In this document: in pieces, positions 20,982 through 39,798 of the stretch
Position numbering within the stretch: position 1 is the first letter of the stretch
How the letters are laid out: every line of letters starts with the position of its first letter
Origin: Blastocatellia bacterium
Lineage (GTDB): Bacteria > Acidobacteriota > Blastocatellia > Pyrinomonadales > Pyrinomonadaceae
Assembly (NCBI GenBank): GCA_033850605.1
Contig: JAWWPL010000246.1
Coordinates: 1-46,525, forward strand
Length of the DNA: 46,525 nt
Direction: 5' to 3'
Notes under the pieces: model-generated
Databases searched by the model: none
What the model was told of the DNA's origin: nothing
Seen by the model: the letters and a program-made list of their open reading frames with translations, nothing else
Position numbers and translations under genes: made by a program

Positions 20982-20985
20982 GAAG

Positions 20986-22259: not shown

Positions 22260-22290
22260 CTTCGGCGTACACGTTGAAACAGATGTAGAT

Positions 22291-22481
22291 AAACCGCAAG
22301 GCGGTTTGGGCCTCCAGCCCAACGTTGACGCGCAGCGTCTACGTTGGGATCAGAGGTTAGTATTGTATCAACCCTGAAAGGGTTGTGTAGTCGCAACCCT
22401 TTCAGGGTTGCAAGATGAATCAAACGGCTTTCCCAGGGTGGCCGCTGCGCGGCAACCCTGGGCTTTGGGAAGCAATTGCTT
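22291..22481. repeat. array of five consecutive palindromes/hairpins inside the ABC operon
   Basis: aaaccgc-aag-gcggttt (22291-22307). cccaacgt..acgttggg with an inner gacgc/gcgtc stem (22318-22348). caaccctgaaagggttg (22369-22385) and its exact reverse complement caaccctttcagggttg (22394-22410). cccagggt..accctggg (22432-22462). gaagcaattgcttc (22468-22481). Confidence 0.8.
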
Positions 22482-22507
22482 CGCGGTTGAGTGCCACAAC
22501 CAAGACA

Positions 22508-24058: not shown

Positions 24059-24062
24059 CCAC

Positions 24063-25067
24063 GTGCCCACGATACCAGCAAAGGTCGAGGCAGCTTCAGC
24101 CGGTCCGGCGCTGCTGAATGTTTGGCTGGCGAGACTGGGTCCGTTCATCGGATTAATCCTGGTGATTGCTGTCTTCGCCCTCTTGACAGAGTCGCCAGGG
24201 CGCTACCTTTCGCCTTTCAATCTGCGGATAGTGCTGGCTCAAACGGTTATTGTGGCGCTCGGCGCTATTGGAATGACGATGATCATCGTCAGTGGCGGAA
24301 TAGATCTTTCGGTTGGTTCGATCATCGCTCTATCGAGTGTGGCGACGGCGCTGGTGCTGAGCGCGGGTTATCCGCCAACTATCGCGGTAATAGTCGGCGT
24401 ATTAGCAGGCGGCCTGGTCGGACTGGCCAATGGATTGGTCATTACGGGTTTACGGGTAGTGCCTTTTATCGCCACGCTCGGCATGCTCGGCATAGCGAGG
24501 GGCGTGGCGAAGTGGATAGCCGGGCAACAGACCGTCAACGTCCCGCAAACCTGGGTCAACGAACTGGCCGTAACTTTCCCGACTCCATCATGGCTACTGC
24601 TCGCGCCGGGCGTCTGGGTTGCGTTAGTGCTGTCAATCATGACGGCGGTGGTCTTACGCAACACTGTTTTCGGCCGGCGCGTTTTCGCGCTGGGCTCGAA
24701 CGAAGCGGCCGCACGCGCTTGTGGCATACCCGTCCCACGTCTCAAGCTTTGGATCTACTCACTGGCCGGACTCTACTTTGGGCTTGCCGGCGTAATGCAG
24801 ATGTCGCGCCTCAGGCAGGGCGACCCAACTGTGGCGGTGGGCGCCGAACTCGACATCATCGCAGCGGTGGTGATCGGTGGTGGCAGTTTGTCGGGCGGGG
24901 AAGGGAGCATCCTGGGGTCCATCATCGGCGCGCTGATAATGGCTTTTCTCCGCAACGGCTGTCAGCAAATGGGCTGGGCCAACTATATCCAGGAGATCAT
25001 CATCGGCGCAACCATCGTCATCGCGGTTGCTATTGATCGTTTCCGTCATGCGCGTACTTACACCTGA
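24063..25067 (+). CDS. sugar ABC transporter permease (RbsC/AraH type)
   Basis: About 9-10 hydrophobic segments. GGIDLSVGSI and GGEGSILGSIIGALIM are typical of ribose-type permeases. GTG start lies 10 nt after GAGGGA. Confidence 0.88.
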   Translation: MPTIPAKVEAASAGPALLNVWLARLGPFIGLILVIAVFALLTESPGRYLSPFNLRIVLAQTVIVALGAIGMTMIIVSGGIDLSVGSIIALSSVATALVLSAGYPPTIAVIVGVLAGGLVGLANGLVITGLRVVPFIATLGMLGIARGVAKWIAGQQTVNVPQTWVNELAVTFPTPSWLLLAPGVWVALVLSIMTAVVLRNTVFGRRVFALGSNEAAARACGIPVPRLKLWIYSLAGLYFGLAGVMQMSRLRQGDPTVAVGAELDIIAAVVIGGGSLSGGEGSILGSIIGALIMAFLRNGCQQMGWANYIQEIIIGATIVIAVAIDRFRHARTYT

Positions 25068-25444: not shown

Positions 25445-25472
25445 TCATTCTTGATTAGCAGAGCCCTGAGGT

Positions 25473-25553
25473 CGGTAGCGACCGGGTCTCAATCCACGCC
25501 ATGGTCGAGTTTGTCGGAAAATAACCCGGTCGCTACCGCTCCCGGTTCTGACC
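25473..25553. repeat. 'ggtcgctaccgctcccggttctg' family palindromic element
   Basis: cggtagcgaccgggt (25473-25487) is the exact reverse complement of acccggtcgctaccg (25524-25538). The right arm continues as ctcccggttctgacc, as in the copies at 39411-39522. Three direct cgcagaga repeats follow (25561-25597). Confidence 0.75.
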
Positions 25554-25638
25554 TCATCACCGCAGAGACGCCGAGGTCGCAGAGACCGCGCAGAGAAAAC
25601 CACAATTCGGATAGGAACCGCTTGAGCTCTTTCCCCCC

Positions 25639-25678
25639 TTGACACCTGACGGAAACTCCATAGAATACGAACGTTCGT
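25639..25678 (+). promoter_or_regulatory. sigma70-like promoter of the TetR gene with an abutting 12-bp perfect palindrome (putative TetR operator)
   Basis: TTGACA (25639-25644), 16-nt spacer, TAGAAT (25661-25666). ACGAACGTTCGT (25667-25678) follows directly, 11 nt before the ATG at 25690. Confidence 0.6.
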
Positions 25679-25689
25679 TTTTGTAAGCT

Positions 25690-26385
25690 ATGCCTAAACT
25701 GACTGAGAAGGCGGTCGAGCGCCGCAAGGGCCGCATCGAAGACGCCGCTAAACAGCTCTTTATCAGACAGGGGTTTCATGCCACGTCGATGCGCAAGATC
25801 GCTTCGCGGGCCGGCACCTCGCTGGGCAACCTTTATAACTATTATCCGACGAAAGAGGCGATCCTTGGTTCGATAATTTCGAAATATCAGAAGGTTGTCG
25901 ATGAGCGGTTGCGTTCGATGTTTGATGAGATCAGGGACCCTTTGAGTCCGGAGGACCTCAAACGGTTTGCCCGTTTGGTCAAGCAGATGGTCAACGAGCA
26001 CCACGATTTTTGGTTGTTGATGTATATCGACGTGCTCGAGTTTGAGAACCTGCATTTTCGCAAGATGTTTGAAAATCTGGCCCTTAAAATGCGGCACCGT
26101 TTTGCCAGGTCCTTTGAAGATCTGCGGAAGAGCGGTGCGTTACACCACGGGGTTGACCCGGCGATTGGTTTTACCGCTGCTTACATGCAATTTTTCAATT
26201 ACTTCATCGTGGAGAAGCTGTTCGGTGGAAACCGGCATCTGGGCATTAGTGACGAACAGGTGATTACTCACCTGACCGATATTTATTCTCGAGGACTATT
26301 GCGGTCAACGAACCATCGACCTCCGGCTGGAACGAAACAAAGGACTAAGCCGTCTCTCCGCGGCCGCAAACGCATCAACAGGTAA
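25690..26385 (+). CDS. TetR/AcrR-family transcriptional regulator
   Basis: The N-terminal HTH AAKQLFIRQGFHATSMRKIASRAGTSLGNLYNYYPTKEAI is the canonical TetR signature. Length is about 230 aa. Confidence 0.92.
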   Translation: MPKLTEKAVERRKGRIEDAAKQLFIRQGFHATSMRKIASRAGTSLGNLYNYYPTKEAILGSIISKYQKVVDERLRSMFDEIRDPLSPEDLKRFARLVKQMVNEHHDFWLLMYIDVLEFENLHFRKMFENLALKMRHRFARSFEDLRKSGALHHGVDPAIGFTAAYMQFFNYFIVEKLFGGNRHLGISDEQVITHLTDIYSRGLLRSTNHRPPAGTKQRTKPSLRGRKRINR

Positions 26386-26501: not shown

Positions 26502-27422
26502 ATGAACTCGCTAAGCGTACAGGATATTTTCAGAGTCACCAGGGAGGCGCGAGGGCGCATCTCGGGCGATGGAGTTGAGTTGGCATTTGGTTATTGGCCA
26601 GGACGCGGCCGGCCGGTAATAGCGATTCACGGATTAACGGCTACCTATATCAGCTATATCGGCGTGGCGGAGCGATTGGCCGGCAGGCGGCCGCTGTTTG
26701 CGCTCGATTTACGCGGGCGAGGTGACTCCGATAAACCTGAAGGGCCGTATGGAATGGCGCAGCACGCCCGCGATGTGGGCGCGGCAATGCAAACACTTGG
26801 CTATGGCCCGTGTGTGATCGTTGGCCACTCGATGGGAGCTTTCGTGGCGACCGCGCTGGCGGCGCAAAACCCGGAACTCGTCGGCGGCATAATCATGATC
26901 GACGGAGGCTATGTTCCTGATTTGCCGGTGGGAGTTGACTCGTCACAAATGCTCGATGCAACGCTGGCGCTGCGAATCGCGCAGCTTACTCGAACTTACG
27001 ATTCGAGAGAGGCGTTCCTGGAGTTCTGGCGCAGTCAACCAAATTTTCCGCCCGCGGATTGGAATTCCTGGACCGAAGCATTTTTGAATAACGAAGTTGC
27101 CGGCGAAACCACGGTGCAGCCCAAAGCTTCCGCCGATGCAGTACGGATTGACGTCGCAGAAGCGTTCAAGCGAGATGAGATTATCGAGCGATTGAAATCC
27201 TTACGAGTTCCCGTGCTGCTCTTGCGCGCCGAAAGAGGCTTGGAGCCGAAGCAGCCGCCGATTTATCCGGATTCGATGATGCCATTGTTTCGGGAATGCG
27301 TTCCCGAAATGAAAGCGGAAATGATTTCCGGCACGACGCATTTCACCATCACGCTCGGAGCACGCGGTGCTTCCAGAGTCGCCGATTTGATCGTCGAATT
27401 TGCTGAGACTTGCGAGAAGTAA
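26502..27422 (+). CDS. alpha/beta-fold hydrolase
   Basis: VIAIHGLTA, DLRGRGDSDKP and the nucleophile elbow GHSMGA. Its TAA stop overlaps the next ATG (TAATG, 27420-27424). Confidence 0.85.
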   Translation: MNSLSVQDIFRVTREARGRISGDGVELAFGYWPGRGRPVIAIHGLTATYISYIGVAERLAGRRPLFALDLRGRGDSDKPEGPYGMAQHARDVGAAMQTLGYGPCVIVGHSMGAFVATALAAQNPELVGGIIMIDGGYVPDLPVGVDSSQMLDATLALRIAQLTRTYDSREAFLEFWRSQPNFPPADWNSWTEAFLNNEVAGETTVQPKASADAVRIDVAEAFKRDEIIERLKSLRVPVLLLRAERGLEPKQPPIYPDSMMPLFRECVPEMKAEMISGTTHFTITLGARGASRVADLIVEFAETCEK

Positions 27423-28429
27423 TGAATTTCAAACGGATCATCATTTCAGTGATCGCGCTCACGTTTGTAACTACGACGGCCTACGGCGGCAGTTGGGTTA
27501 GCGGCACGGTCAAGAATTCTTCCGGCGCGCTTGATTATAAATTGTGGGTGGCATCTGCGTACCGCAAGGAAAAGGCAGCGTCGCTGGTAGTGCTGCTGCA
27601 CGGCTGTACTCAGAAGGCCGAAGACCTGGCCGGCCTGTCCGGGATGAATGATCTCGCCGACAAGGATAATTTTCTGGTCGTTTACCCCGAACAAAGCGCT
27701 ACGGCCAATCCGCTAAGATGTTGGAACTGGTTTGACCCAAAGAATCAATCGCGCGATACCGGTGAGCCTTCGCTCATTGCAGCCATCGTTCAGGATATTC
27801 GTTCCAAATACAGTATTGAGAGCAAAGACGTTTATGTGGCCGGGATATCGGCCGGCGGCGCGATGGCTGTGGTTATGGTCGCGGCCTATCCCGAAGCTTT
27901 CGCAGGACTCGGCGTTATTGCCGGAGCTGAGTACAAAGCCGCCACCAGCGTGCAGGCTGGGCTGGCTGCGATGAAGCAAGGTGGTCCCGATCCGAATCAG
28001 CAGGGCCTGCTTGCGTTTCGGGCAATCCAGAAAAGTTTGGGTGAATCGAAAAGGCGAATTCCCGTGATCGCCTTCCAGGGAATGAAAGATCCGTATGTGA
28101 GCCCGCTCAATACGGACCAGCTGATAGCTCAATGGGCGCAGACAAACGATTACCTTGACGATGGCAAGGACAATGATAGCGTCTCAATCCAATCGCCCAA
28201 AGAAACAAAAGGCTCGGTTCCGAACGGCTACAGCTTTACCAAATATAGTTTTTACGACGGCACGAAACGGTTGTTGATGGAAAAGTGGTTAGTCGAGGAA
28301 CTCGGTCATGCCTGGCCCGGGAGCCTGATTACGAATCAGTTTGCCGATCCAAAAGGACCGAACGCCACCGCAGAGATGTGGCGATTCTTCCGGGAAACGA
28401 GTGCGAAGACAATAGGAGGGAGCAAGTGA
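27422..28429 (+). CDS. secreted PHB-depolymerase-family esterase (Esterase_phd / LpqC-like)
   Basis: Signal peptide MNFKRIIISVIALTFVTTTAYG. Family motifs LVVLLHGCTQ, FLVVYPEQS, CWNWF, GEPSLIA and VYVAGISAGGAM (Ser elbow). Start moved to ATG 27422. Confidence 0.8.
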   Translation: MNFKRIIISVIALTFVTTTAYGGSWVSGTVKNSSGALDYKLWVASAYRKEKAASLVVLLHGCTQKAEDLAGLSGMNDLADKDNFLVVYPEQSATANPLRCWNWFDPKNQSRDTGEPSLIAAIVQDIRSKYSIESKDVYVAGISAGGAMAVVMVAAYPEAFAGLGVIAGAEYKAATSVQAGLAAMKQGGPDPNQQGLLAFRAIQKSLGESKRRIPVIAFQGMKDPYVSPLNTDQLIAQWAQTNDYLDDGKDNDSVSIQSPKETKGSVPNGYSFTKYSFYDGTKRLLMEKWLVEELGHAWPGSLITNQFADPKGPNATAEMWRFFRETSAKTIGGSK

Positions 28430-29958
28430 ACGTCGGTTCTCTCCTCGCCAGACACGCGCAGTATCGTCCGCAGCACACGGCGGTTGTGTTCGATGATCGT
28501 CGGCTGAGTTTTCTGGAATTTAACCAGCGGGTCAATCGACTTGCCAATGCACTGCTCAATCTGGGCGTGAGTAAAGGGGATAAGGTCGCGACGATCTTAC
28601 CGAATTGTTTGGAGTTACTTGAGAGCTACTGGGCGATAGTAAAGATTGGCGCCGTGATTGTGCCGCTCAGCCAATTGCTGCGCGGCCAGGGACTGCTGAA
28701 CCTGCTGCGGGATTCCGATACTTCGACGGTAATCACAAGCTCCTGCATCGCTGGTGAGTTGAATTCCATCAAGTCAGAACTCGAGAAGATTTCAGCAGAT
28801 CGGTACATCTCAATCGATGATGCCGAAGGTTTTCAAACCTACGGTACGTTGCTTGAAGCAGCCGGAGACGAAGAGCCGCCAAAGATAGAAATTGGCGACG
28901 ACGATCCATTCAACATTATTTACAGCAGCGGCACGACCGGGCTTCCCAAAGGCATCGTGCACACGCACTACATTCGGGCTATGTATTGCACGATGTTCGC
29001 TTCTTCATTTCGCATGCGTCCGGAAAGTGTCGTGATTCATGCCGGCTCGATCGTCTTTAACGGCGCGTTTGTCATGCTGATGCCGGCGTTGTTTCTGGGC
29101 GCCAGTTACGTGCTGCTCAAACATTTCGATCCCGAAACTTTCATAGCCACGATCGAGCGGGAACGCGCGACGCACGTGATGATGGTGCCGTCGCAAATCA
29201 TCGCGCTGCTGAATTCGCCGGCTTTCCGGCCTGAACGCTTGCGCTCAATGGAAGCCATTTGCTCAGTCGGCGCGCCGCTTCATCGTGAGCACAAAGATAA
29301 GTTGACCCGGATGCTGCCGGGCCGCTTTTACGAACTGTACGGTTTGACGGAAGGATTCATCACGATACTCGACAAAAACGATTATGCGGCCAAGCCCGAT
29401 TCGGTGGGCGTGCCCATCGCTTTTTCGGAAATGCGAATCATCAATGGCGAAGGACGCGATGCGGTTGCCGGCGAGGTCGGTGAGATTGTCGGATGCAGTC
29501 CGGCGCTGATGCCGGGTTATTACAAGCAGCCTGAACTGACGGCGGAGGCCGTTGTCGATGGTTGGCTGCACACGGGCGACCTTGGCTACATCGATAGGGA
29601 CGGTTTTCTTTACCTCGTCGACCGCAAGAAAGATCTGATCATCTCCGGCGGCATAAACGTCTTTCCCAAAGATATCGAAGAGATCATCGTGCAGCATCCC
29701 TCGGTGCGCGAAGTGGCGGTCTTTGGGATTCCCAGCGAAAAGTGGGGCGAGACTCCGGTTGCCGCTGTCATCCTTCACGTATCAGGAGAAATCGGCGAAG
29801 GAGCATTGTGCGAATGGATCAACGATCGTGTGGACGGGAAACATCAGCGCGTTTCCGCGGTCGTGTTGATGGAGGATTTTCCGCGCAGCGCTGCGGGCAA
29901 GACGCTCAAACGCGAGATGCGTGAGCCTTACTGGGCAGGCCGCGCGGCGCGCATTTAA
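28426..29958 (+). CDS. AMP-dependent acyl-CoA synthetase (medium/long-chain type)
   Basis: IIYSSGTTGLPKGIVHTH, YGLTEG, TGDLGYIDRDGFLYLVDRKKDLI and AAGKTLKRE. GTG 28426 follows AGGAGGGA and overlaps the esterase stop (GTGA). The track start 28285 lies inside the esterase gene. Confidence 0.88.
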   Translation: MNVGSLLARHAQYRPQHTAVVFDDRRLSFLEFNQRVNRLANALLNLGVSKGDKVATILPNCLELLESYWAIVKIGAVIVPLSQLLRGQGLLNLLRDSDTSTVITSSCIAGELNSIKSELEKISADRYISIDDAEGFQTYGTLLEAAGDEEPPKIEIGDDDPFNIIYSSGTTGLPKGIVHTHYIRAMYCTMFASSFRMRPESVVIHAGSIVFNGAFVMLMPALFLGASYVLLKHFDPETFIATIERERATHVMMVPSQIIALLNSPAFRPERLRSMEAICSVGAPLHREHKDKLTRMLPGRFYELYGLTEGFITILDKNDYAAKPDSVGVPIAFSEMRIINGEGRDAVAGEVGEIVGCSPALMPGYYKQPELTAEAVVDGWLHTGDLGYIDRDGFLYLVDRKKDLIISGGINVFPKDIEEIIVQHPSVREVAVFGIPSEKWGETPVAAVILHVSGEIGEGALCEWINDRVDGKHQRVSAVVLMEDFPRSAAGKTLKREMREPYWAGRAARI

Positions 29959-30251: not shown

Positions 30252-33200
30252 ATGACTTGGAATAGAAGATTAGTGAGTGTCTTTGCGATCACTTTGATTG
30301 CCGGTTTAGCGAGCGTAGCAGGGGCGCAAGTGACAACCGGAACAATCAGCGGCACGGCGACCGACCCCAACGGCGCGGTCGTAGCGGGCGCAAACGTGAA
30401 GGCAAACAACTTGGCCACGGATGCGACGCGAACGACAAGTTCCGATAGCGACGGACATTTTGTCTTTACTTTTCTAAGCCCCGGGCGCTATCGCGTTGAA
30501 GTTACCGCGCAAGGTTTTCAAACCTATCAGGCGGAGCTGGTAGTAAATATTACCCAGACGACCAGCGTTGACGCGCGACTCAACCTGGCGGGGACTAGTG
30601 CGACAGTCATGGTAGCGACCGAGGCGCCAGTCTTGCAGGCTGAGACCTCGCAAAGCGGCCAGGTGATCGAGAGCGGAACCATTCGCCAACTGCCGCTGTC
30701 GACCAGGAACTTTCAACAGCTCCTGGTGCTGCAGGCCGGCGCGCAATCTTCAGTTCCGAACAGCACGGATTTAGGCCGGGGCGACACCGCGTTCAGCGTC
30801 AACGGACAGCGCACGACCAGTAACAGCGTTAAGATCAACGGTGTCGACGCTAACTCGATCGGGACTAACTCAACTCCCAATCTGGCGGTGCCGAGCACCG
30901 AAAGCCTGCAGGAGTTCATCGTCCAGACTTCGCTTTACGACGCGTCCAATGGGCGCAATGCGGGCGGCAACGTCGAAGCTGTGACGCGTTCCGGCGGCAA
31001 TGATTTTCATGGAAATGTCTTTTACTTCCTGCGAAACAAGGCTCTCAACGCGAACGAGCCATTTATCAAAGCCCGCGGTCTGGAACGTCCGATTTTGACG
31101 CGCAACCAATTCGGCGGAACACTCGGAGGCAGGATTGTTCGCGACAAAGCGTTCTTCTTCGTTTCGTATCAAGGCACGCGCGAACGCAATGGTCTTTCGC
31201 TTTCCAACAGTCTAACTTTTCCATCGGTTCCGGCGGGCTTGCGCGATGACAACCGGACCGCGGCGGCGCTGGCGACAACCTTTGGACTGCCGGTGGCAAG
31301 TATCAGTCAGGTGGCGGTGAATATTCTGAACGCCAAGCTGCCCGACGGCCAGTTTGCAATCCCCTCGTCGGGAATAGCGGGAGCGAGTGGAGCAGCGGCG
31401 CGAATACCGACTTCCGTCGTGCAATCAGGGGTCTCTCGTTTTACGGAAAATCAATTCAATGCAAATCTCGATTTCAACTTTACCAATACACATTCGTTGT
31501 CGAGCAAATTGTTCTATGCCAAAAACCCGTCGGTTCAGGCTATCTATAATTTTGCCGGAACGGGAAATCGGCTCGAAGGTCAGCCAGTCAATCAACTAAT
31601 TGGTTTTGGCGGTAACATACCAATCACGCAAATTCTGTATTCGTTGACTGACAACTACGCCGTCAGCTCGAGGATCAGTAATCAGGCGCGGTTCGGCATC
31701 AACTCGATAGAAGCGACCAGCACGCCGCAAGAACCGTTCACTGCAGCGCAACTCGGCATCACTTCGCCGTTCGCCAGTCTCTATCCCGGAGCCCCAACAA
31801 TTCAGGTTGCGGGTGCGGATGCCTCTTTCTTCTTTGGCTCGTCACCGCTGGGCGATCAGCATTCCAAGATTGATGCATGGACCGCGCAGGACACCGTTTC
31901 AATTGTAGCGGGTAAACACCGCATCCGCGTCGGTGGAGAGTACCGTCACTCGGCCCTGGATTTTTATTTCAATGCGTTTACACGTGGACAGTTGATCTTC
32001 ACCAGCTTCAATAACCTCTTGATTGGCAACGGTGTCTCGATTCTGGGCTCGGGTGTTTTTGATCGTCATTACACCGTGAAAGATCTCGCCGCGTTTGTTC
32101 AGGACGATTACAAAGTCAACAACCGTCTGACGCTGAACCTCGGTTTGCGGTACGACTATTTTGGACTACCTGTTGATTCAAGAGGGCGGCTGGTGAATTT
32201 CCTGCCCGATCAATTTCGCGTGGGCGCGCCTCCGAATGGAATCGTGCAAGCGTCAGGCGGGCAACTTCCGGGAGTTCCGACCGTAGATAAGACGCTGGTT
32301 CCGACCGACAAGAACAACTTTGCGCCGCGTGTGGGTTTTGCTCTTCGGGCCGACAACGCAGGGAAGATCATCATCCGCGGCGGCTACGGGGTTTACTACG
32401 ACCGTTTCTCGACTCGGTTCATCAACACCCAACTCTTCAATTTTCCGTACCTGGCTTTAGGCGTGGGTTTGCCGGGCATCTTGCGAACGTTTGCTGATCC
32501 GTTCGTGCCGCTTCCGCTGCCTTCGACGTTCCCAACCGCAGCCACAATTCCGTCGGTGTTGTCACCGCTCGCTCCATTTGTCGGCGTGCCGGTCAGCGGA
32601 GTTTATGTTGACCCGAACTTGAGTACGCCTTACGTCCAGCAGTTCAACTTGGGCGTGCAATGGGAATTTGCCAAGAACACAGTTTTGGAAGTTGGCTACG
32701 TCGGAAACAAGGGGACCAAGCTGCTACAGCTAATCAACGTCAATCAACCGATCTACGCGCCGGCGACCAACAGCTTTGTGACGCGCCTCGCGGCGGGATC
32801 GATTTTGTCTACCAACAAGAATGTCACCGGTGGCGTGCATCAGGTGCAAACGTCGTCCAACTCGAGATACAACTCACTGCAGGCAACATTGACGCGCCGT
32901 TTTTCGCAGGGCCTGCAACTAACCGCCGCGTACACCTTCGGTCGTTCCTATGATTATTACAACGGGACTCCGGTTAATGAGTTGGCCAGTCTAGCGGGCG
33001 ACCAATATGACTGGAAAAGGAATTACGGCCGGTCGGACTTTAATCGCGAACACCGCCTGGTAATCAGCGGCGCTTACGACTTGCCGAAATCCAAGTCCGG
33101 TTCCGGCACGGCCCGCGCGCTTCTGAACAATTGGCAGATCGCCGGCATCGCAGTTTTCCAGTCGGGCCTGCCATTCTCGATCATCGATAATCCCGGCAAC

Positions 33201-33626
33201 GCGGTCTTCAGCCGGGCCAACTTCAATCCATCGTTCACGGGACAGGTTCAGTGCAGCGGCTCAGTCTCCAGTTGCCTGACTAGCTATTTCAACCAGGCCG
33301 CATTCGTAATTTCGCGTCCACGGCTCGATAACACCGGCGTCGGCGTAGTCAACAATCCGACATTCGATCCGGCCAATCCCTTTGGCAACACGCCGCGGAA
33401 CTTCCTGACTGGTCCGGGGCAAAAGAACGTCGACATTTCGCTGATCAAATTTATTCCGATCAACGAGCGGTTTCGCGGCGAGGCCCGAGTGGAATTGTTC
33501 AATGCCTTCAACTGGGTCAACTACGCCAATCCGGTTAACAACATCGCGATTGCGTCGTTCGGGAAAATTATTTCTGCGAGCACGGGACCGCGCGTAATTC
33601 AGTTTGCTTTCAAAGTGAACTTTTAG
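30252..33626 (+). CDS. TonB-dependent outer-membrane receptor with N-terminal carboxypeptidase-regulatory-like domain
   Basis: Signal MTWNRRLVSVFAITLIAGLASVAGAQ. GTISGTATDPNGAVVAGANV...DGHFVFTFLSPGRYRVEV is a CarbopepD_reg-type domain. The plug region FSVNGQRTTSNSVKINGVDAN follows, then a long beta-barrel ending in ...FAFKVNF (terminal Phe). GGAGG RBS is present. Confidence 0.9.
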   Translation: MTWNRRLVSVFAITLIAGLASVAGAQVTTGTISGTATDPNGAVVAGANVKANNLATDATRTTSSDSDGHFVFTFLSPGRYRVEVTAQGFQTYQAELVVNITQTTSVDARLNLAGTSATVMVATEAPVLQAETSQSGQVIESGTIRQLPLSTRNFQQLLVLQAGAQSSVPNSTDLGRGDTAFSVNGQRTTSNSVKINGVDANSIGTNSTPNLAVPSTESLQEFIVQTSLYDASNGRNAGGNVEAVTRSGGNDFHGNVFYFLRNKALNANEPFIKARGLERPILTRNQFGGTLGGRIVRDKAFFFVSYQGTRERNGLSLSNSLTFPSVPAGLRDDNRTAAALATTFGLPVASISQVAVNILNAKLPDGQFAIPSSGIAGASGAAARIPTSVVQSGVSRFTENQFNANLDFNFTNTHSLSSKLFYAKNPSVQAIYNFAGTGNRLEGQPVNQLIGFGGNIPITQILYSLTDNYAVSSRISNQARFGINSIEATSTPQEPFTAAQLGITSPFASLYPGAPTIQVAGADASFFFGSSPLGDQHSKIDAWTAQDTVSIVAGKHRIRVGGEYRHSALDFYFNAFTRGQLIFTSFNNLLIGNGVSILGSGVFDRHYTVKDLAAFVQDDYKVNNRLTLNLGLRYDYFGLPVDSRGRLVNFLPDQFRVGAPPNGIVQASGGQLPGVPTVDKTLVPTDKNNFAPRVGFALRADNAGKIIIRGGYGVYYDRFSTRFINTQLFNFPYLALGVGLPGILRTFADPFVPLPLPSTFPTAATIPSVLSPLAPFVGVPVSGVYVDPNLSTPYVQQFNLGVQWEFAKNTVLEVGYVGNKGTKLLQLINVNQPIYAPATNSFVTRLAAGSILSTNKNVTGGVHQVQTSSNSRYNSLQATLTRRFSQGLQLTAAYTFGRSYDYYNGTPVNELASLAGDQYDWKRNYGRSDFNREHRLVISGAYDLPKSKSGSGTARALLNNWQIAGIAVFQSGLPFSIIDNPGNAVFSRANFNPSFTGQVQCSGSVSSCLTSYFNQAAFVISRPRLDNTGVGVVNNPTFDPANPFGNTPRNFLTGPGQKNVDISLIKFIPINERFRGEARVELFNAFNWVNYANPVNNIAIASFGKIISASTGPRVIQFAFKVNF

Positions 33627-33716: not shown

Positions 33717-34547
33717 ATGTCATACTTTCAAGGTCATACTTTCAAGCAAATGCCACAACTGACTCTTGGTGACGTCGATCTCCACTACGAAGTTCACGGA
33801 CAGGGTGAGCCGCTGGTGCTCATTGCCGGCTTTGCCGCGGGTGCCTGGACCTGGTTCAAACAAGTCGCGGCGTTTGCCGAGCATTTTCGGGTAATAACTT
33901 TCGATCCTCGCGGCATCGGTAAGTCAGATTATTCCGCGCGTCCATCGGATATGCGCCTGATGGCCGATGACGTGGCGGGTTTGCTGCGGGGCTTGGCGAT
34001 TGAAAGCGCACACATCCTGGGGGCGTCGTTTGGAGGATTTGTGGCGCAGGAGTTCGCCCTCGCCTATCCCGAGATGACGCGCAATTTGGTTTTGTGTTGC
34101 ACGAGCTTTGGCGGTCCGAATCATGTGGCGCCCGCAACCGAGACGCTGACGGCCCTGATCTCGGGTGACGGATTCAATACCGAAGATCGCGTCAGGCGCA
34201 ATCTGATGCCGGCTTTCTCGCCTGACTTTGCGTGTGACCATTCAACAGAGGTTGAGCAGACCGTAAAGTTGCGAATGGCGAACCCGGTTTCTGAGGAAAC
34301 CTATCGGGCCCAGTTGATGGCCGCATTAGGATTCAATGCTGAGCCGAGATTGCCGGCGATCAAATCTCCGACTCTTATCGTCAGCGGAGGCGCTGACGCG
34401 ATCGTTCCGGCGCAAAACTCCCAAAATCTCGCGGCAAAGATCCCGGGCTCGCAACTGCTGATCGTTGAGGGTGGCAGTCATCTATTTTTTATTGAGCGGC
34501 CCGAAGATTTCAATCGAATCATAATCGAGTTTCTTAAGCAGAGCTGA
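33717..34547 (+). CDS. alpha/beta-fold hydrolase (PcaD/BioH-like subfamily)
   Basis: HYEVHGQGEPLVLIAGF, FDPRGIGKSD, the nucleophile elbow GASFGG, and the C-terminal GGSHLFFIERPEDF (His). Confidence 0.85.
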   Translation: MSYFQGHTFKQMPQLTLGDVDLHYEVHGQGEPLVLIAGFAAGAWTWFKQVAAFAEHFRVITFDPRGIGKSDYSARPSDMRLMADDVAGLLRGLAIESAHILGASFGGFVAQEFALAYPEMTRNLVLCCTSFGGPNHVAPATETLTALISGDGFNTEDRVRRNLMPAFSPDFACDHSTEVEQTVKLRMANPVSEETYRAQLMAALGFNAEPRLPAIKSPTLIVSGGADAIVPAQNSQNLAAKIPGSQLLIVEGGSHLFFIERPEDFNRIIIEFLKQS

Positions 34548-34549
34548 TA

Positions 34550-35539
34550 ATGACCTACGCGCGCATCATCGGCACAGGCTCCTACGTTCCTGAAAAAGTG
34601 CTGACCAACGATGATCTGAGCCGCATGCTGGGCGAAGACATTGACGAGTTCGTTTCTCAAGTCATCGGAATTAGCGAGCGTCACGTCTGCGCCGACAACG
34701 AAAGCACGGCTGACCTGGCCACCGCGGCCAGCAGGAAGGCTTTGCAGGCGGCGGACATGTCCCCGGAAGATCTGGATCTAATCGTTCTTGCGACCGACAC
34801 GCCTGAACACCTCTCGCCGGCAACCTCGGTGGTGGTCCAGCATCGCATCGGAGCGAAGAACGCGGGCACGTTTGATGTCAGTTGCGCCTGCGCGGGCTTT
34901 GTGACGGCGCTGGACGCGGCGTCGAAGTACATCATCGCCGATCCGGCATACAGAAATGTTCTTGTAATCGGCGCCTACGCGATGAGCAAGTACATCGATT
35001 GGAAGGACAAGAAAACTGCGACGATCTTTGCCGATGGCGCAGGCGCCGTCGTCTTGCAAGCGAGCGACGAAGGGCCGGGATTTCTTGCCTCAAAGCTGAT
35101 TGCCAATGGCAGTTTCTCAGATTACATGGGCATCTACGCCGGCGGCACACGGATGCCGATAACGGAAGAAGTGCTGCGCGAAGGCCGTTGGACCAAAGTG
35201 CGCTTTGCGCGGAAGTATCCGCCGGAAGTGAATATCGAAGGCTGGCCCAGGATTATTCATGAGGTGCTCAAGAAAAGCAGCCTTACCGTCGACGACGTGG
35301 CGCTCTTTCTCTTCACTCAGGTAAATTTGAGCACGATCAAAGAGGTCATGAAGATTCTCGAGGCGCCGATGGAGCGCACGCATACAATCATGCAGAAGTG
35401 GGGCTATACGGGATCTGCATGCATTCCGATGGTGCTCGATGACGCTGTCCGTGCAGGCAAATTGAAGCGCAGCGATAACGTGATTATGTGCGCTTCAGGC
35501 GGCGGTCTAAACATGGCGTGCGTTGCGTTTCGCTGGTAA
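34550..35539 (+). CDS. KAS III (FabH)-like thiolase-fold protein retaining the Cys but lacking the catalytic His and Asn
   Basis: It aligns without gaps to FabH: IIGTGSYVPEKVLTNDDL, FDVSCACAGF (active-site Cys), FADGAGAVVL. The FabH motif P-H-Q-A-N reads FTQVN here, and G-N-T-S-A-A reads GYTGSA. Confidence 0.85.
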   Translation: MTYARIIGTGSYVPEKVLTNDDLSRMLGEDIDEFVSQVIGISERHVCADNESTADLATAASRKALQAADMSPEDLDLIVLATDTPEHLSPATSVVVQHRIGAKNAGTFDVSCACAGFVTALDAASKYIIADPAYRNVLVIGAYAMSKYIDWKDKKTATIFADGAGAVVLQASDEGPGFLASKLIANGSFSDYMGIYAGGTRMPITEEVLREGRWTKVRFARKYPPEVNIEGWPRIIHEVLKKSSLTVDDVALFLFTQVNLSTIKEVMKILEAPMERTHTIMQKWGYTGSACIPMVLDDAVRAGKLKRSDNVIMCASGGGLNMACVAFRW

Positions 35540-35541
35540 GC

Positions 35542-35636
35542 GTCAGAACCGCCTTGTGGCGGGCGGTTGATCTTAGGTATCGCTCAGCTTTCGACTATCC
35601 AGGTTCAACCGTCCGCTACCGCGGGCGGTTCTGACC
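35542..35636. repeat. 'cagaaccgcc / ggcggttctgac' palindromic element
   Basis: gtcagaaccgcc (35542-35553) and ggcggttctgac (35625-35636) are exact reverse complements. A local hairpin cagaaccgcc..ggcggtt sits just after the KAS III-like stop. The right half (ccgctaccgcgggcggttctgac) resembles the 39411-39522 family. Confidence 0.6.
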
Positions 35637-35648
35637 GGACAATCCGAG

Positions 35649-37463
35649 ATGAACTACCCGAACATCTATTCCTTATTCATCGATCGAGTAAAGACGTTTC
35701 GCGCGCGCCAGGCCGGTTTGCCACGCGATGTCTTCTACTATCGCCGCGATGAACAATGGCAAGGGATTTCGTGGAATCGTTTCGATGAGGAAGCGCATGA
35801 CTTTGCCACGGCCTTATTGTCGCTGGGCTTAAAGAAGGGTGATTCAGTCGCGATTCTGATGGGCAATGTGCCCGAGTGGCCGATCAGCGACATCGGCACT
35901 ATCGCCGCCGGCGGTGTGGGCGTCGGATTGTATCCCACGAGTTCCGCCGAACAGTGTCAATACATCATCAACCATTCGGATGCGGAGTTCGTGTTGGTCG
36001 ACACCGCAAGCCAGCTGGAAAAAGTCCTCAGTGTCCGGACGCAATTACCAAAGGTCAAAGCGATCATCGTGCTTGACGAATCCGCTGCCGGCCAGTCAGA
36101 ACAAGTCTTGAATTACCGGGAACTGCTGGCCCGCGGTCGAGATCATCGAGCAGCGTACTCGTCCCTCCTACGCGAACGAGCCGAAGGCGCAACAGCCGAC
36201 GACATCGCCATCATGGTTTACACGTCGGGCACTACGGGTCCGCCCAAAGGCGCCCTCCTCAGTCATCGTTACATCCTCAACAGCGTCGAATCGCTGCGTC
36301 AGACAATTCCTATCTTCGATACTGACGTTTCGTTTTCTTATCTGCCGTACTGCCATGTCGCCGAACGTATCTCGGGTCTTTATAACCGGCTTTACGCCGG
36401 CGCGTCGGCTTATTTCGTCGATGATTTGTCAAAGCTGGGCCAGTACATGCTGGAAGTGAAGCCCACGGTCTTCGCCAGCCTGCCGCGGTTCTTTGAAAAG
36501 ATTCACGCGCGCGTAGTGGCTGACGTGGAGGCCGCTGCGAAAGAAGAGCGCGAGGATTTCCTCCAAGCGCTGGCCGTGGGACGAGAGGTCTCGCGCCTTC
36601 GCCAAGCGAGAAAGGAAGTGCCGGCGGATATCAAGGACAGATACGAAGTTGAAGCCTCTCCGATTCTGAAAAAGGTCAAAGAGTATTTCGGTGGCCGTAT
36701 TCGTCTGGCAACTTCCGGCGGCGCGCCTTTGAATCTCGAAGTGGCTGAATTCTTCGATGCGGCTGGTCTGCCGATTCTGCAAGCCTATGGCCTGACGGAA
36801 AACATCTGCGTGGCTTTCAATCGTCCTGACAATCACAAATTCGGTACGGTTGGTCCACCGATGCCGGGTTGTGAGGTCCGGATTGCCGACGACGGCGAAA
36901 TTCTTGTCCACAGCAAAATGATGTTCAGCGGTTACTACAAAGCGGCGGACGAGACCGCGGCAATGTTCCGCGATGGCTGGTTGCTGACGGGAGATATCGG
37001 CGAGGTAGACCGAGCCGGCTTCTTGAAAATTACCGGACGTAAGAAGGAACTGATCGTCACTTCGACGGGAAAGAAAATTGCGCCGGCGCTGATCGAGAAC
37101 CTGTTGAAAGAACATCACCTGATCAGTCACGCACTGGTTTACGGTGAAGGGAAGAGCTACCTCGTGGCTTTGATTACGCTGAATCCGGTAGAGACTGCTG
37201 AATTCGCGCGGGCGCAGGGAGTTACTGGCAGTTTCGATAATCTCGGGCAGACAATTGCGCAGACAGAGGCCTTGCGCCGGCTTCTGCAGGAGACGATCGA
37301 TGAAGTGAACGCGCGTGTGTCATCGACCGAATCCATTAAGAAGTTTGCGATTCTCGACCGAGACTTTGAGGTTGAAAGAGATGAAGTCACGCCAACCGGA
37401 AAGCTTAAGCGAGAGGTTGTGACCGCACGATATCGCGATTTGATCGAGAGTCTTTACACTTGA
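35649..37463 (+). CDS. long-chain fatty-acid--CoA ligase (about 600-aa FACS type)
   Basis: MVYTSGTTGPPKGALLSH, YGLTEN and TGDIGEVDRAGFLKITGRKKELIVTSTGKKIAP. The C-terminal IKKFAILDRDFEVERDEVTPTGKLKR is typical of long FACS enzymes. Confidence 0.9.
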   Translation: MNYPNIYSLFIDRVKTFRARQAGLPRDVFYYRRDEQWQGISWNRFDEEAHDFATALLSLGLKKGDSVAILMGNVPEWPISDIGTIAAGGVGVGLYPTSSAEQCQYIINHSDAEFVLVDTASQLEKVLSVRTQLPKVKAIIVLDESAAGQSEQVLNYRELLARGRDHRAAYSSLLRERAEGATADDIAIMVYTSGTTGPPKGALLSHRYILNSVESLRQTIPIFDTDVSFSYLPYCHVAERISGLYNRLYAGASAYFVDDLSKLGQYMLEVKPTVFASLPRFFEKIHARVVADVEAAAKEEREDFLQALAVGREVSRLRQARKEVPADIKDRYEVEASPILKKVKEYFGGRIRLATSGGAPLNLEVAEFFDAAGLPILQAYGLTENICVAFNRPDNHKFGTVGPPMPGCEVRIADDGEILVHSKMMFSGYYKAADETAAMFRDGWLLTGDIGEVDRAGFLKITGRKKELIVTSTGKKIAPALIENLLKEHHLISHALVYGEGKSYLVALITLNPVETAEFARAQGVTGSFDNLGQTIAQTEALRRLLQETIDEVNARVSSTESIKKFAILDRDFEVERDEVTPTGKLKREVVTARYRDLIESLYT

Positions 37464-37471
37464 GGAAAGTA

Positions 37472-37545
37472 GTGTGTCAGAAGCCCGACCGTTAGGGAGG
37501 GCGGCTTTGGGAAACATGCCCTCGCTCACGCGCGGGCTTCTGAAA
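37472..37545. repeat. 'gtgtgtcagaagc...gcttctga' palindromic element (uninterrupted copy)
   Basis: tcagaagcccg (37477-37487) pairs with cgggcttctga (37533-37543). The inner arms cgttagggagggc / gccctcgctcacg are partly complementary. It belongs to the same family as 43987-44166. Confidence 0.7.
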
Positions 37546-37555
37546 CCTTTTCATC

Positions 37556-37951
37556 ATGAAAATCAAACCAGGCGACACCGCGTCGGTCTCAAAGACGATC
37601 ACTGACGATGATATTCACAAATTTGCCGATGTCTCGGGCGATCATAATCCTTTGCATCTCGATGATGAGTTTGCGCGGACTACTCGCTTTGGCCGGCGCA
37701 TCGCCCACGGGATGTTGAGTGCTTCATTGATTTCATCCGTGATAGCCAACCAATTACCGGGGCAAGGCAGCATTTATCTCGGTCAGACTTTGCAATTTGT
37801 CGCGCCGGTTTTTCCCGGCGATACCGTGACTGCCCAGGTGACAGTCGTTTCGATCCGCGCAGACAAGCCGATCGTCAAGCTCGAAACCATCTGCACGAAT
37901 CAGCGCGATGAAGTCGTAATAAAGGGCGCAGCTACAGTTCTCGTTAGTTAG
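37556..37951 (+). CDS. MaoC-like (R)-specific enoyl-CoA hydratase/dehydratase (hot-dog fold)
   Basis: FADVSGDHNPLHLDDEFA...RIAHGML is the hydratase-2 motif. Length of about 130 aa is PhaJ-like. Confidence 0.85.
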   Translation: MKIKPGDTASVSKTITDDDIHKFADVSGDHNPLHLDDEFARTTRFGRRIAHGMLSASLISSVIANQLPGQGSIYLGQTLQFVAPVFPGDTVTAQVTVVSIRADKPIVKLETICTNQRDEVVIKGAATVLVS

Positions 37952-37960
37952 CGATCACGC

Positions 37961-39247
37961 ATGCCGTCAGCCACCAAGTATCAGGCGACAGCCGATCCAG
38001 TAGACCAGAGCGCCGGGACGTACGCCTGGTATGCGCTCGGCCTGCTCACGTTCGTCTATGTCCTCAACTTTCTCGATCGCACACTGATCTACATTCTCTT
38101 CACGCCGATCAAGAAGGAGATGGCGTTTTCCGATTTGCAGCTGGCGCTGCTCGGCACGACTTCGTTCGTCATTTTTTATACAGCCCTGGGAATTCCTTTC
38201 GGTCGTCTCTCTGATCGCATAGTCCGCAAGAACATGATTGCGTCCGGTCTTGCGGTGTGGAGCGTGTTCTCTGGTCTCACCGGATTTGCGAAGGGGTTCT
38301 GGACCTTGTTCTTCTGTCGCGTAATGGTTGGTGTGGGCGAAGCGACGTTGGGACCAGCGGCGCTGTCATTGCTGAGTGATTATTTTCCGCCGCGACGGCG
38401 CGCCACCGTCCAGGCGATTTACTCATCGGGTATCGCAGTGGGCGCCGGCTTGGCTTTCTTTCTTGGAGGATGGGTGGGCCAGCACTTCGGATGGCGCTCG
38501 GCGTTCTACCTGCTCGGTTTTCCGGGACTGTTCATTGCCGTGCTGGTTTTTCTGCTCAAGGAAAAGCCCCGAGGTCAAACGGAAACGGCCACAGTTCAAT
38601 ACACCAGCAAAGATTGGAAAATATTATTTCGGTCGGTTCCTTTGCGATACCATTATCTCGGTTACGCGCTGTTTGGTCTTGCGGCCAACAATTTGTCGAT
38701 TTGGGGCGCGACATTTTTTGTGCGCGTGCACAAGCTTGATATCGCCACGATCGGTTTCTTTGGGGGTGTATTGTCGCTGGTGGCCGGAGTGCCCGGGACT
38801 ATTCTCGGCGGTTGGGCCGCGGATCGATTTCGCGGCTTCGGTCGCGGCGGACGAATGCTTTTCAGTTCCGTGGCGGCGCTGATTGCGATTCCGTTCTGGG
38901 TCATGCTGATCTTTTCCAATAGCCTTCCGCTGCTTCTGATCGCTAATTTCGTATTACTTGGGCTCTCATTAATGTGGCTGGGGCCGGCCGCCGCGGATGT
39001 GCACGACATCGCCGGGCCGCACTTGCGAGGCCTGGGAATCGGTATCTACTTCTTCAGCGTGAATATTGCTGCGTATGCGATTGGTTCGAACCTCATCGGG
39101 ATGCTAAACGACAGGCTGGGCGCTTCCACCAATCCTTTGCAGATGCGCTACTCGCTTCTCATCTGCCCGATTGCGTGTGCGCTGGCGGCGTTGATGTTGC
39201 GGCTCGGCAGCCGCAGTTTGGGAAGAGAGTCACGACTAACGAGCTGA
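37961..39247 (+). CDS. MFS transporter
   Basis: Twelve hydrophobic segments. LNFLDRTLIYILF and the loop 2-3 motif GRLSDRIVRK are typical MFS signatures. Confidence 0.85.
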   Translation: MPSATKYQATADPVDQSAGTYAWYALGLLTFVYVLNFLDRTLIYILFTPIKKEMAFSDLQLALLGTTSFVIFYTALGIPFGRLSDRIVRKNMIASGLAVWSVFSGLTGFAKGFWTLFFCRVMVGVGEATLGPAALSLLSDYFPPRRRATVQAIYSSGIAVGAGLAFFLGGWVGQHFGWRSAFYLLGFPGLFIAVLVFLLKEKPRGQTETATVQYTSKDWKILFRSVPLRYHYLGYALFGLAANNLSIWGATFFVRVHKLDIATIGFFGGVLSLVAGVPGTILGGWAADRFRGFGRGGRMLFSSVAALIAIPFWVMLIFSNSLPLLLIANFVLLGLSLMWLGPAAADVHDIAGPHLRGLGIGIYFFSVNIAAYAIGSNLIGMLNDRLGASTNPLQMRYSLLICPIACALAALMLRLGSRSLGRESRLTS

Positions 39248-39331: not shown

Positions 39332-39410
39332 GCTTGACGACAAATTGCTCTGGCAAAGGAAAACCTATGCGCCTCTGCGGTATCGCATTGTTTGCACAAG
39401 AGCAAGTCGT

Positions 39411-39522
39411 TACAGAACCGGGAGCGGTAGCGACCGGATGCTAGCACTCAGCGACGGACTAGAAGCGCAATTAATTAAAGGGTTGAATGTAGCATCCGGT
39501 CGCTACCGCTCCCGGTTCTGTA
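39411..39522. repeat. perfect 33-bp inverted repeat ('acagaaccgggagcggtagcgaccgg' family) with a 46-nt loop
   Basis: tacagaaccgggagcggtagcgaccggatgcta (39411-39443) is the exact reverse complement of 39490-39522. Related copies lie at 25473-25553 and 35542-35636. Confidence 0.85.
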
Positions 39523-39554
39523 ATAAAACTTCACCTGTCGGTATCCATTCGATA

Positions 39555-39613: not shown

Positions 39614-39730
39614 ATGAGCTTCGTTAGCACCCATCATAGCCACCACGTGCACCATCGTGCCGACCATTATCGGCAGCGGGGCAGCGTGCCGGCGATTGTG
39701 ATGCGGAAGCTCGAAGCGATAACAGAGTAA
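39614..39730 (+). CDS. hisL: his operon leader peptide (38 aa, 7 His in residues 7-18)
   Basis: Manual translation gives MSFVSTHHSHHVHHRADHYRQRGSVPAIVMRKLEAITE*. It is too short for the ORF track. It sits between a promoter-like element and a terminator, directly upstream of hisZ. Confidence 0.7.
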   Translation: MSFVSTHHSHHVHHRADHYRQRGSVPAIVMRKLEAITE

Positions 39731-39753
39731 CCAGCGAACAAATCAAAGGTTTC

Positions 39754-39798
39754 AAACCCGCTGCCCGTGATGAACGAGGCAGCGGGTTTTTCTTTTTG
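39754..39798 (+). terminator. intrinsic terminator of the his attenuator
   Basis: aaacccgctgcc (39754-39765) pairs perfectly with ggcagcgggttt (39778-39789) over a 12-nt loop, followed by ttctttttg. ggcagcggg (39672-39680) in the leader can pair instead with cccgctgcc (39757-39765). Confidence 0.75.

Follow-up and report, generated by a model that had tools for sequence, protein, structure and literature searches.

The window analysed here is a stretch of 46,525 nucleotides, contig JAWWPL010000246.1 (assembly GCA_033850605.1) of a Blastocatellia bacterium from the family Pyrinomonadaceae of the Acidobacteriota. It carries a gene for a 329-residue protein with the fold of beta-ketoacyl-acyl carrier protein (ACP) synthase III (KAS III), the enzyme known as FabH, in which two catalytic residues of FabH have been exchanged. 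This KAS-like gene belongs to a transcription unit of approximately 25.6-39.3 kb, which runs from a TetR gene at 25690 through a gene for a major facilitator superfamily (MFS) transporter. An earlier note on this DNA, made from the letters of the sequence, had described five open reading frames (ORFs), encoding an alpha/beta hydrolase, the KAS III-like enzyme, a fatty acyl-CoA synthetase (FACS), a MaoC dehydratase and the MFS transporter. All five were found with the expected families, and their Pfam domains agree. The unit is larger than these five genes, as it starts at the TetR gene and also includes an outer-membrane receptor, a secreted esterase, a further hydrolase and a second ligase. 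The KAS start codon lies three bases past the last base of the hydrolase stop codon, with two bases between them, which is the spacing reported before, and the FACS gene starts 109 nt downstream of the KAS gene.

The protein matches ACP_syn_III (1.4e-27) and ACP_syn_III_C (2.1e-25) in Pfam, and its translation contains the motifs DVSCACAGF, FTQVN and GYTGSAC. In phmmer alignments with the FabH structures 2ebd, 4dfe and 8vd9 (E 1e-63 to 1e-58), FTQVN lies over PHQAN and GYTGSA over GNTSAA, and FabH His244 and Asn274 correspond to Thr256 and Tyr286. These residue correspondences had been proposed earlier and hold; the accompanying statement that the alignment is free of gaps does not, as a gap of about 16 residues separates the protein from Aquifex FabH near 195-210. 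The nucleophilic Cys is retained in DVSCACAGF, and an alignment of 252 homologues identified it as C114, the second Cys of SCACAG and the counterpart of C112 in E. coli FabH; the first Cys, C112 of the present protein, lies over a FabH Ala. Among 18 orthologues the Gly-rich oxyanion loop S316-G317-G318-G319 is invariant, and the mean column identity is 73%. An AlphaFold2 model built from an alignment of 17 clade members reached a pLDDT of 93 and resembles FabH structures with Foldseek TM scores of 0.90-0.96. The protein passes the NCBIfam model PRK09352 'beta-ketoacyl-ACP synthase 3' (282 bits, cut-off 249) and does not reach TIGR00747 (251 bits, cut-off 292). Its homologues are publicly named 'ketoacyl-ACP synthase III' because the cut-off of PRK09352 is exceeded.

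In FabH, His244 and Asn274 are needed for malonyl decarboxylation and for stabilisation of the enolate. As both residues are gone, malonyl decarboxylation would be impossible for the KAS-like protein; a decarboxylative condensation had already been considered unlikely, and non-decarboxylative chemistry appears the sensible expectation from the residues. When 20-24 diverse members of the clade were compared with about 100 relatives retaining Cys-His-Asn, the changes were seen to extend beyond these two positions. Specific to the clade are Asp83, where FabH-type relatives carry Val, Ser, Ile or Thr; Ser89 at the position of E. coli FabH Phe87, the residue capping the acyl pocket; Asn228 at the A216 position of FabH; Trp232, where the relatives have Met or Leu; Phe255 in place of Pro and Thr256 in place of His; Tyr286 for Asn, Gly288 for Ser and Cys291 for Ser; and Ser316 at FabH Phe304. 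Most of these swaps replace a hydrophobic residue with a polar, hydrogen-bonding one, which suggests an acyl pocket larger and more polar than that of FabH. The positions of FabH Arg249, which docks ACP, and of Arg36, Arg151 and Thr28, which contact the CoA nucleotide, are variable in the clade, with one residue (Arg at 249, 36 and 151) filling each of them in 75-91 of 100 Cys-His-Asn relatives; at the three Arg positions (249, 36 and 151) the protein of the window has Ser261, Val38 and Lys154.

Asp83 is present in 23 of the 24 clade members of the diverse tree set. A profile alignment made with hhalign against the HMG-CoA (3-hydroxy-3-methylglutaryl-CoA) synthase of an Archangium genome (TIGR01835, 396 bits) placed the A-T-D83 of the clade over G-T-E of the synthase and C114 over its Cys; only the N-terminal half was covered (probability 98%, E 2e-13). 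The aligned Glu is the general base of HMG-CoA synthase, and because of this correspondence Asp83 is a candidate acid/base residue.

The exchange is real and conserved. A search of 5.8 billion proteins gave 121 close homologues with 81-100% identity to the query, mainly from Pyrinomonadaceae and Blastocatellia metagenomes, and the pentad Asp83-Cys114-Thr256-Tyr286-Cys291 (D-C-T-Y-C) is present in 121/121 of them, in 93/93 fetched loci and, by exhaustive HMMER search, also in representatives at 33-57% identity. No orthologue restores His or Asn (0/121 and 0/93). A motif scan detected GYTG[SN]xC in at least 599 species genomes of GTDB, and the best 80 of these matches were kept as loci. The 93 loci cover the archaeon Thermofilum adornatum and seven bacterial phyla, namely Acidobacteriota, Gemmatimonadota, Myxococcota (Archangium, Pyxidicoccus, Corallococcus and Chondromyces), Chloroflexota, Caldisericota, Spirochaetota and one Bacteroidota-like contig. 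Carriers in culture include Pyrinomonas methylaliphatogenes K22, Archangium gephyra, Corallococcus, Chondromyces and Thermofilum adornatum. When a tree was calculated for 133 KAS III relatives with both trait columns removed, the proteins carrying the pentad grouped in a single clade with 100% SH-like support, and its only other members were an Asn/Ser variant and four ORFs that are truncated or chimeric. No paper describing the clade emerged from open-access literature searched for KAS III enzymes in which Thr/Tyr replaces His/Asn, for a Thermofilum FabH and for FabH-like genes in catabolic clusters. The D-C-T-Y-C proteins constitute a distinct, widespread and uncharacterised branch of the KAS III-like proteins.

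Within the genus of the window the gene is patchy (3/25 genomes) and for that reason is regarded as accessory. The canonical FabH of the same genome, with PHQAN and GNTSSA, adjoins fabD on contig C283. Two further KAS III paralogues with Cys-His-Asn intact were observed in the genome (L002, G000:C88; L003, G000:C523), one of them adjoining a small ACP-like ORF. Tandem KAS III-like genes were seen on one metagenome contig (L029), because of which some clade members may work as heterodimers.

Table 1. Features of the KAS-like operon and its surroundings, with positions in the window.
Feature	Coordinates	Strand	Details
REP-like (repetitive extragenic palindromic) element upstream of the operon	25452..25559		inverted repeat I2; 25-nt core identical to 39413-39437 and 39496-39520
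Sigma-70-like promoter candidate	25639..25666	+	TTGACA-16-TAGAAT, 11/12 matches; just upstream of the TetR gene
TetR-family regulator, operon head	25690..26385	+	TetR_N 2.3e-15
Cytoplasmic alpha/beta hydrolase ABH0	26502..27422	+	GHSMG nucleophile elbow; Abhydrolase_1 2e-22
Secreted PHB-depolymerase-type esterase (PHB, polyhydroxybutyrate), catalytic domain only	27410..28429	+	probable start ATG at 27422; Esterase_PHB 1e-29
AMP-forming acyl-CoA ligase LIG1	28285..29958	+	AMP-binding 1.7e-78, AMP-binding_C; start uncertain, ORF overlaps esterase gene
Outer-membrane receptor, TonB-dependent-receptor-like	30252..33626	+	signal peptide; OMP_b-brl_4 2.7e-185, CarboxypepD_reg 1.7e-20, weak TonB_dep_Rec_b-barrel
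Cytoplasmic alpha/beta hydrolase, 276 aa	33717..34547	+	Abhydrolase_1 1.4e-30; translationally coupled to KAS gene
KAS III-fold enzyme, D-C-T-Y-C clade	34550..35539	+	329 aa; ACP_syn_III + ACP_syn_III_C
REP-like hairpin, KAS-FACS gap	35544..35635		arms GTCAGAACCGCC / GGCGGTTCTGAC; related to 39413 element (I6)
Long-chain-type acyl-CoA synthetase, FadD11-like, 604 aa	35649..37463	+	AMP-binding 8.9e-78 + AMP-binding_C_3
REP-like hairpin, FACS-MaoC gap	37474..37546		inverted repeat I4, 29-nt arms, 83% complementary
PhaJ-type (R)-specific enoyl-CoA hydratase, 131 aa	37556..37951	+	MaoC_dehydratas 2.7e-29
MFS transporter, 428 aa	37961..39247	+	MFS_1 3.5e-53
REP-like element downstream of the operon	39410..39523		perfect 34-nt inverted repeat I1, 100% complementary

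The remaining genes of the operon are summarised in Table 1. The promoter candidate is a consensus match only, and such sites are no more numerous in the region than expected from shuffling. The TetR gene has an orthologue (54-70% identity) preceding the outer-membrane protein gene in about 40 Blastocatellia loci. Between the TetR and receptor genes the window carries a three-gene insert, relative to the common layout, made up of ABH0, the esterase and LIG1; the same layout is found in a congener (L033) and in L086. The esterase has a signal-peptide-like N-terminus (MNFKRIIISVIALTFV...) and the elbow GISAGG (GxSxG). It scores 280.7 bits on NF050058, extracellular short-chain-length polyhydroxyalkanoate (scl-PHA) depolymerase type 1 (cut-off 150), a 'hypothetical equivalog' model, and 137 on TIGR01840 (cut-off 108); depolymerase activity is a prediction. 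Ligases of the LIG1 type directly follow the KAS gene in Myxococcota and Chloroflexota.

An orthologue of the receptor lies upstream of the hydrolase-KAS pair in most Blastocatellia loci. The hydrolase of that pair retains the triad Ser104-Asp227-His255, invariant in 18 orthologues, and its nearest NCBIfam models, PcaD, RutD and PHA depolymerases, are all far below their cut-offs. In 45 loci it immediately precedes KAS, and in 22 of these the two genes overlap or are separated by no more than 6 nt. The 604-aa synthetase reaches 356 bits on the FadD11 model, below the cut-off of 950. In the MaoC protein the hydratase-2 motif reads FADVSGDHNPLH and includes both catalytic residues of PhaJ, Asp and His. 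The MFS transporter, whose orthologue closes the operon in most Blastocatellia loci, has as its nearest model the anion:cation symporters of D-galactonate type (TIGR00893, 1.7e-42; 145.8 bits, below the cut-off of 395), and is probably an inner-membrane acid importer.

The gaps on either side of the FACS gene had been described as filled with repeats, which is correct. These are REP-like elements of a genome-wide family that is not specific to the operon. The family has the core GGTCGCTACCGCTCCCGGTTCTG, often in inverted pairs about 67 nt apart, with 192 matches in the 4.4-Mb draft genome. Owing to this number, the copies at 25.5 kb and 39.4 kb were rejected as the borders of a mobile cassette.

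Comparison of the loci showed that the hydrolase-KAS-ligase neighbourhood is syntenic in many genomes; genes of high-GC loci were called with weighting of third-position GC (GC3). In about 40 Blastocatellia species, one strand carries TetR, the outer-membrane receptor, the hydrolase, KAS, the ligase of about 600 aa, often a second hydrolase, MaoC and MFS. The Myxococcota have a FabG/PhaB-like short-chain dehydrogenase/reductase (SDR), TetR, KAS, the ligase, two proteins without assignment, a hydrolase and a class-2 lipase. In Archangium gephyra (L107, 12691-15038; orthologues in L096, L105 and L106) two conserved proteins of about 210 and 554 aa lie between ligase and hydrolase, and neither has a Pfam or NCBIfam match. 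The Gemmatimonadota layout comprises LacI, KAS, a ligase, a sodium:solute symporter, MaoC, Esterase_PHB and a ligase. Chloroflexota, Caldisericota and Thermofilum combine one or more ligases and hydrolases with KAS, an SDR and a LIV-type ATP-binding cassette (ABC) importer; in Thermofilum (L127) KAS is flanked by the permease and binding-protein genes of the importer, the operon also encodes a ligase and two hydrolases, and a thiolase and an SDR are nearby. In the spirochaete locus, a ligase and KAS are accompanied by a divergent acyl-CoA dehydrogenase with electron-transfer flavoprotein. Three unrelated importer types and TetR or LacI regulators occur with KAS in other phyla.

Of the 59 loci that extend over 15 kb or more, 56 contain a ligase, 51 a hydrolase and 45 either MaoC or a FabG-like SDR; Pfam detected a ligase also in L129, and the short metagenome contigs of P0122, P0124 and P0127 contributed no gene context. 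The Bacteroidota-like locus (L128) has no ligase adjoining the KAS gene, and the pairing of ligase and KAS is very frequent, not absolute. No ACP or polyketide synthase (PKS) genes were found in the window or in 93 related loci, and Thermofilum, as an archaeon, is expected to be without ACP. (R)-3-hydroxyacyl thioesters are handled by PhaJ-type hydratases as well as by reductases of the FabG/PhaB type. Because MaoC and the FabG-like SDR alternate among the loci, (R)-3-hydroxyacyl-CoA is a likely intermediate of the pathway. The partners vary by phylum, and an apparent logic of uptake and catabolism is kept.

Taken together, the residues and neighbours point to an active, cytoplasmic, ACP-independent and non-decarboxylating enzyme with an acyl-S-Cys intermediate. 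It would act with the adjacent AMP-forming ligase in a TetR-controlled operon for the uptake and catabolism of (R)-3-hydroxy-acid esters, and its most likely chemistry would be acyl transfer between O-esters and CoA. In our estimation this reading stands about an even chance of being correct. Substrates bound to CoA rather than ACP are suggested because an archaeon carries the gene and no ACP gene is nearby. The uptake and catabolism reading is favoured because importers, local repressors, esterases or lipases and an (R)-hydratase or reductase recur across phyla and in the archaeon; the same gene content speaks against a biosynthetic pathway and against the lipid or acyl-ester modification pathway proposed in the earlier note.

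In the proposed pathway, the secreted PHB-depolymerase-type esterase would cut a polyester, and the outer-membrane receptor and the MFS symporter would bring the fragments in. The cytoplasmic alpha/beta hydrolases and the ligases may convert these fragments to CoA thioesters, and the PhaJ-type (R)-hydratase, or the FabG/PhaB-like reductase in other phyla, could pass (R)-3-hydroxyacyl-CoA to beta-oxidation. The KAS-like enzyme, with Cys and oxyanion loop retained, would form the acyl-S-Cys intermediate at C114 and mediate Cys-dependent acyl transfer between an O-ester and CoA. For example, it might use CoA to cleave (R)-3-hydroxyalkanoate oligomers by thiolysis, yielding 3-hydroxyacyl-CoA, or run in the opposite direction as an O-acylation. 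The Asp83/Tyr286 pair would handle the proton of the alcohol oxygen, as His does in other KAS III-like acyltransferases. A precedent for thiolysis is provided by PhaZ1 of Ralstonia eutropha, which converts PHB to 3-hydroxybutyryl-CoA (3HB-CoA) in a CoA-dependent manner (PMC3430594).

Several points weigh against this proposal. A PHB-depolymerase-type gene lies near KAS in 6 of 94 places (the 93 loci and the window), corresponding to about two independent lineages, and because of this PHA fragments are only one substrate candidate of several. They are the best lead in the present operon; hydroxy acids derived from lipids or cutin and other esters are also candidates. The 604-aa ligase is of long-chain type and appears a poor fit to 3-hydroxybutyrate. 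The esterases of the operon could cleave all of the esters by themselves, in which case a thiolytic enzyme would have no obvious task. The reaction is deduced from residues and neighbours only, and the catalytic role of the Glu aligned with Asp83 is that established in the literature for HMG-CoA synthase. A bolder form of the proposal is that the D-C-T-Y-C clade constitutes a new thiolase-fold class, a CoA-dependent 'thiolytic oligoester depolymerase' that, after import of (R)-3-hydroxyalkanoate oligomers or of different O-esters, would turn these directly into acyl-CoA thioesters via acyl-S-Cys. This is a speculative idea and distinctly unlikely at present. If true, one ATP-dependent activation would be saved per ester bond, and a widespread, previously unseen step of PHA turnover would exist in soil bacteria and some archaea.

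Among the other explanations, C-C chemistry without decarboxylation is unlikely, and is the likeliest of them. In the same way as the HMG-CoA synthase Glu or OleA Glu117, Asp83 would deprotonate the alpha-carbon of acyl-S-Cys, leading to an aldol/Claisen-type condensation, its reverse, or the beta-elimination of a 3-acyloxy group from a CoA thioester made by the ligase. The conservation of Asp83 (23/24, 121/121 and 93/93) and its profile alignment with the HMG-CoA synthase Glu agree with such a role. The neighbouring ligase would supply the thioester, which acidifies the alpha-proton, and the tight ligase-KAS pairing would thereby be explained. However, both HMG-CoA synthase and OleA keep a His that polarises the carbonyl of the second substrate, where Thr is found here. 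The genes around KAS point to uptake and catabolism; a set for product export or tailoring is not seen among them, and no second source of acyl-CoA is evident. The presence of two invariant Cys residues, C114 and C291, has also to be considered in terms of a degradative thiolase substitute. By analogy with the two-Cys thiolase mechanism, Cys114 would attack a 3-ketoacyl-CoA, and the acetyl-CoA enolate that leaves would receive its proton from Cys291 or Tyr286. FabG-like SDRs, possible makers of 3-ketoacyl-CoA, occur in many clusters, and the Blastocatellia operon has no thiolase gene. Nevertheless, that operon has a hydratase and no dehydrogenase to provide a 3-keto substrate, and some clusters own a thiolase adjoining the SDR, as in Thermofilum. 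In the FabH alignment C291 falls five residues past Tyr286, on the helix starting at the Asn274 position, and would not occupy the position of thiolase Cys378. Ordinary thiolases are abundant, and no need for a substitute is apparent. Altogether this explanation is quite improbable.

The combination of a thiolase-fold condensing enzyme, an alpha/beta hydrolase and an adenylating enzyme is superficially that of oleA, oleB and oleC, and some distant loci contain an SDR too (L027). An Ole-like or beta-lactone-type biosynthetic cassette is nevertheless very improbable, and was rejected on residues, OleA similarity and operon content: the His and Asn of OleA are absent, OleA chains match at about 1e-15 compared with 1e-63 for FabH, the ligases are ordinary fatty-acyl-CoA-ligase types, and the clusters are centred on importers, repressors and secreted esterases or lipases. 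The window has no OleD-type reductase; that this is not a canonical ole cluster had been recognised before, and the residues, the distant OleA match and the operon content bear it out. The reading of the gene as a FabH paralogue of the usual kind, or as a copy that is decaying or inactive, has practically no chance of being right, although the PRK09352 cut-off is exceeded and public naming agrees with FabH. The pentad is invariant across two domains of life and in sequences as distant as about 33-45% identity, the 18 orthologues keep their mean column identity of 73%, orthologues restoring His/Asn are lacking among those compared, and a true FabH stands beside fabD. An 'isolated decaying copy' was rejected on the conservation in all 121 homologues and 93 loci. 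The preferred explanation is still the non-decarboxylating acyl transfer between O-esters and CoA.

These observations have consequences for annotation and for soil microbiology. In at least 599 species genomes with the motif, a gene that pipelines name 'ketoacyl-ACP synthase III' would be unable to perform FabH chemistry. Such misnaming inflates the gene counts for the initiation of fatty-acid and polyketide synthesis, including those of archaea without ACP. The clade represents a condensing-enzyme fold that appears to have been rebuilt on a new residue set, Asp/Thr/Tyr/Cys, for a different reaction. The KAS operon is among the most conserved accessory operons of soil Acidobacteria, and its tie to a secreted PHB-depolymerase-type esterase provides a testable lead on uncultured soil bacteria that may consume microbial polyesters or related hydroxy-acid esters.

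Other features were observed elsewhere in the window. A candidate his-operon attenuator occupies 39614-39795, upstream of hisZ (39829), hisG and hisD. It comprises a 38-codon leader ORF (MSFVSTHHSHHVHHRADH...) with 7 His among codons 7-18, and a strong hairpin with a U-run at 39756-39795 (fold z-score -3.6). An Rfam scan of the 39.2-39.8 kb spacer gave nothing meaningful, and the His leader model was unmatched. Upstream of the operon and separate from it, 19614-25067 contains a gene of the enolase superfamily (MR_MLE) and an ABC importer of sugar type consisting of Peripla_BP_4, a fused double ATPase and a BPD_transp_2 permease. A gene on the - strand (15917-18640) encodes a 907-aa protein that joins a Ser/Thr protein kinase to PD40/WD40-like beta-propeller repeats.

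The known systems closest to the KAS-like enzyme share its fold or its context and differ in defined ways. HMG-CoA synthase has the thiolase fold in common with it, as well as an acidic residue about 31 residues before the Cys and, on the present reading, a non-decarboxylative acyl-S-Cys chemistry. It differs in that Asp replaces Glu and the His of the synthase is missing. The Pfam model HMG_CoA_synt does not match the KAS-like protein, and NCBIfam HMG-CoA synthase models give at most 64 bits against cut-offs of at least 244. The protein does not appear to be an HMG-CoA synthase, and judged by sequence the resemblance is at one residue. Thiolases are characterised by Thiolase_N/C domains and by Cys-His-Cys with Asn; no thiolase domain was detected on the KAS-like protein in Pfam at E <= 0.001, and NCBIfam thiolase models match at about 1e-6, far below their cut-offs. 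OleA uses Cys-His-Asn and Glu117 from the partner subunit and has oleBCD neighbours, including the OleD reductase. The KAS-like protein has Ser89 at the position resembling Phe87/Glu117, and its similarity to OleA is weak (about 1e-15). The head-to-head condensing enzymes OleA and LstAB of the ole, lipstatin and nocardiolactone clusters are KAS III relatives encoded beside an alpha/beta hydrolase and an adenylating enzyme (PMC12141560). The KAS operon differs from these clusters in being built around importers and a repressor, with no OleD.

The mobilisation of PHB involves an extracellular PHB depolymerase, a 3HB-oligomer hydrolase, PhaJ and the thiolytic PhaZ1, and the operon resembles it in the secreted scl-PHA-depolymerase-type esterase, the cytoplasmic hydrolases and the PhaJ-type hydratase. 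The cytoplasmic hydrolases differ in being far below the cut-offs of PHA-depolymerase models, and we know of no KAS III-fold enzyme in a PHA pathway. FabH itself (Aquifex 2EBD, E. coli 1HN9/1EBL) shares with the protein the fold, the domain pair, 32-37% identity, a Cys at the same helix N-terminus and the oxyanion loop. In contrast, His244/Asn274, Arg249, the CoA-clamp residues and Phe87/Phe304 are not kept, and Asp83, Asn228, Trp232 and Cys291 are newly invariant in the clade; the KAS-like gene lies in a TetR/transporter operon, not in a fab/pls cluster, and occurs in an archaeon. The natural-product acyltransferases of the CerJ/DpsC/ChlB type have a Cys/Ser-His-Asp triad and a PKS or ACP cluster context. 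The KAS-like protein differs from CerJ, DpsC and ChlB3/ChlB6 in the absence of His at the 244 position, of a nearby ACP or PKS gene and in its catabolic context. CerJ, DpsC and ChlB3/ChlB6 have the KAS III fold and transfer acyl groups via an acyl-enzyme, with no decarboxylative condensation (PMC9573744), and by analogy the KAS-like enzyme would most likely work as these acyltransferases do.

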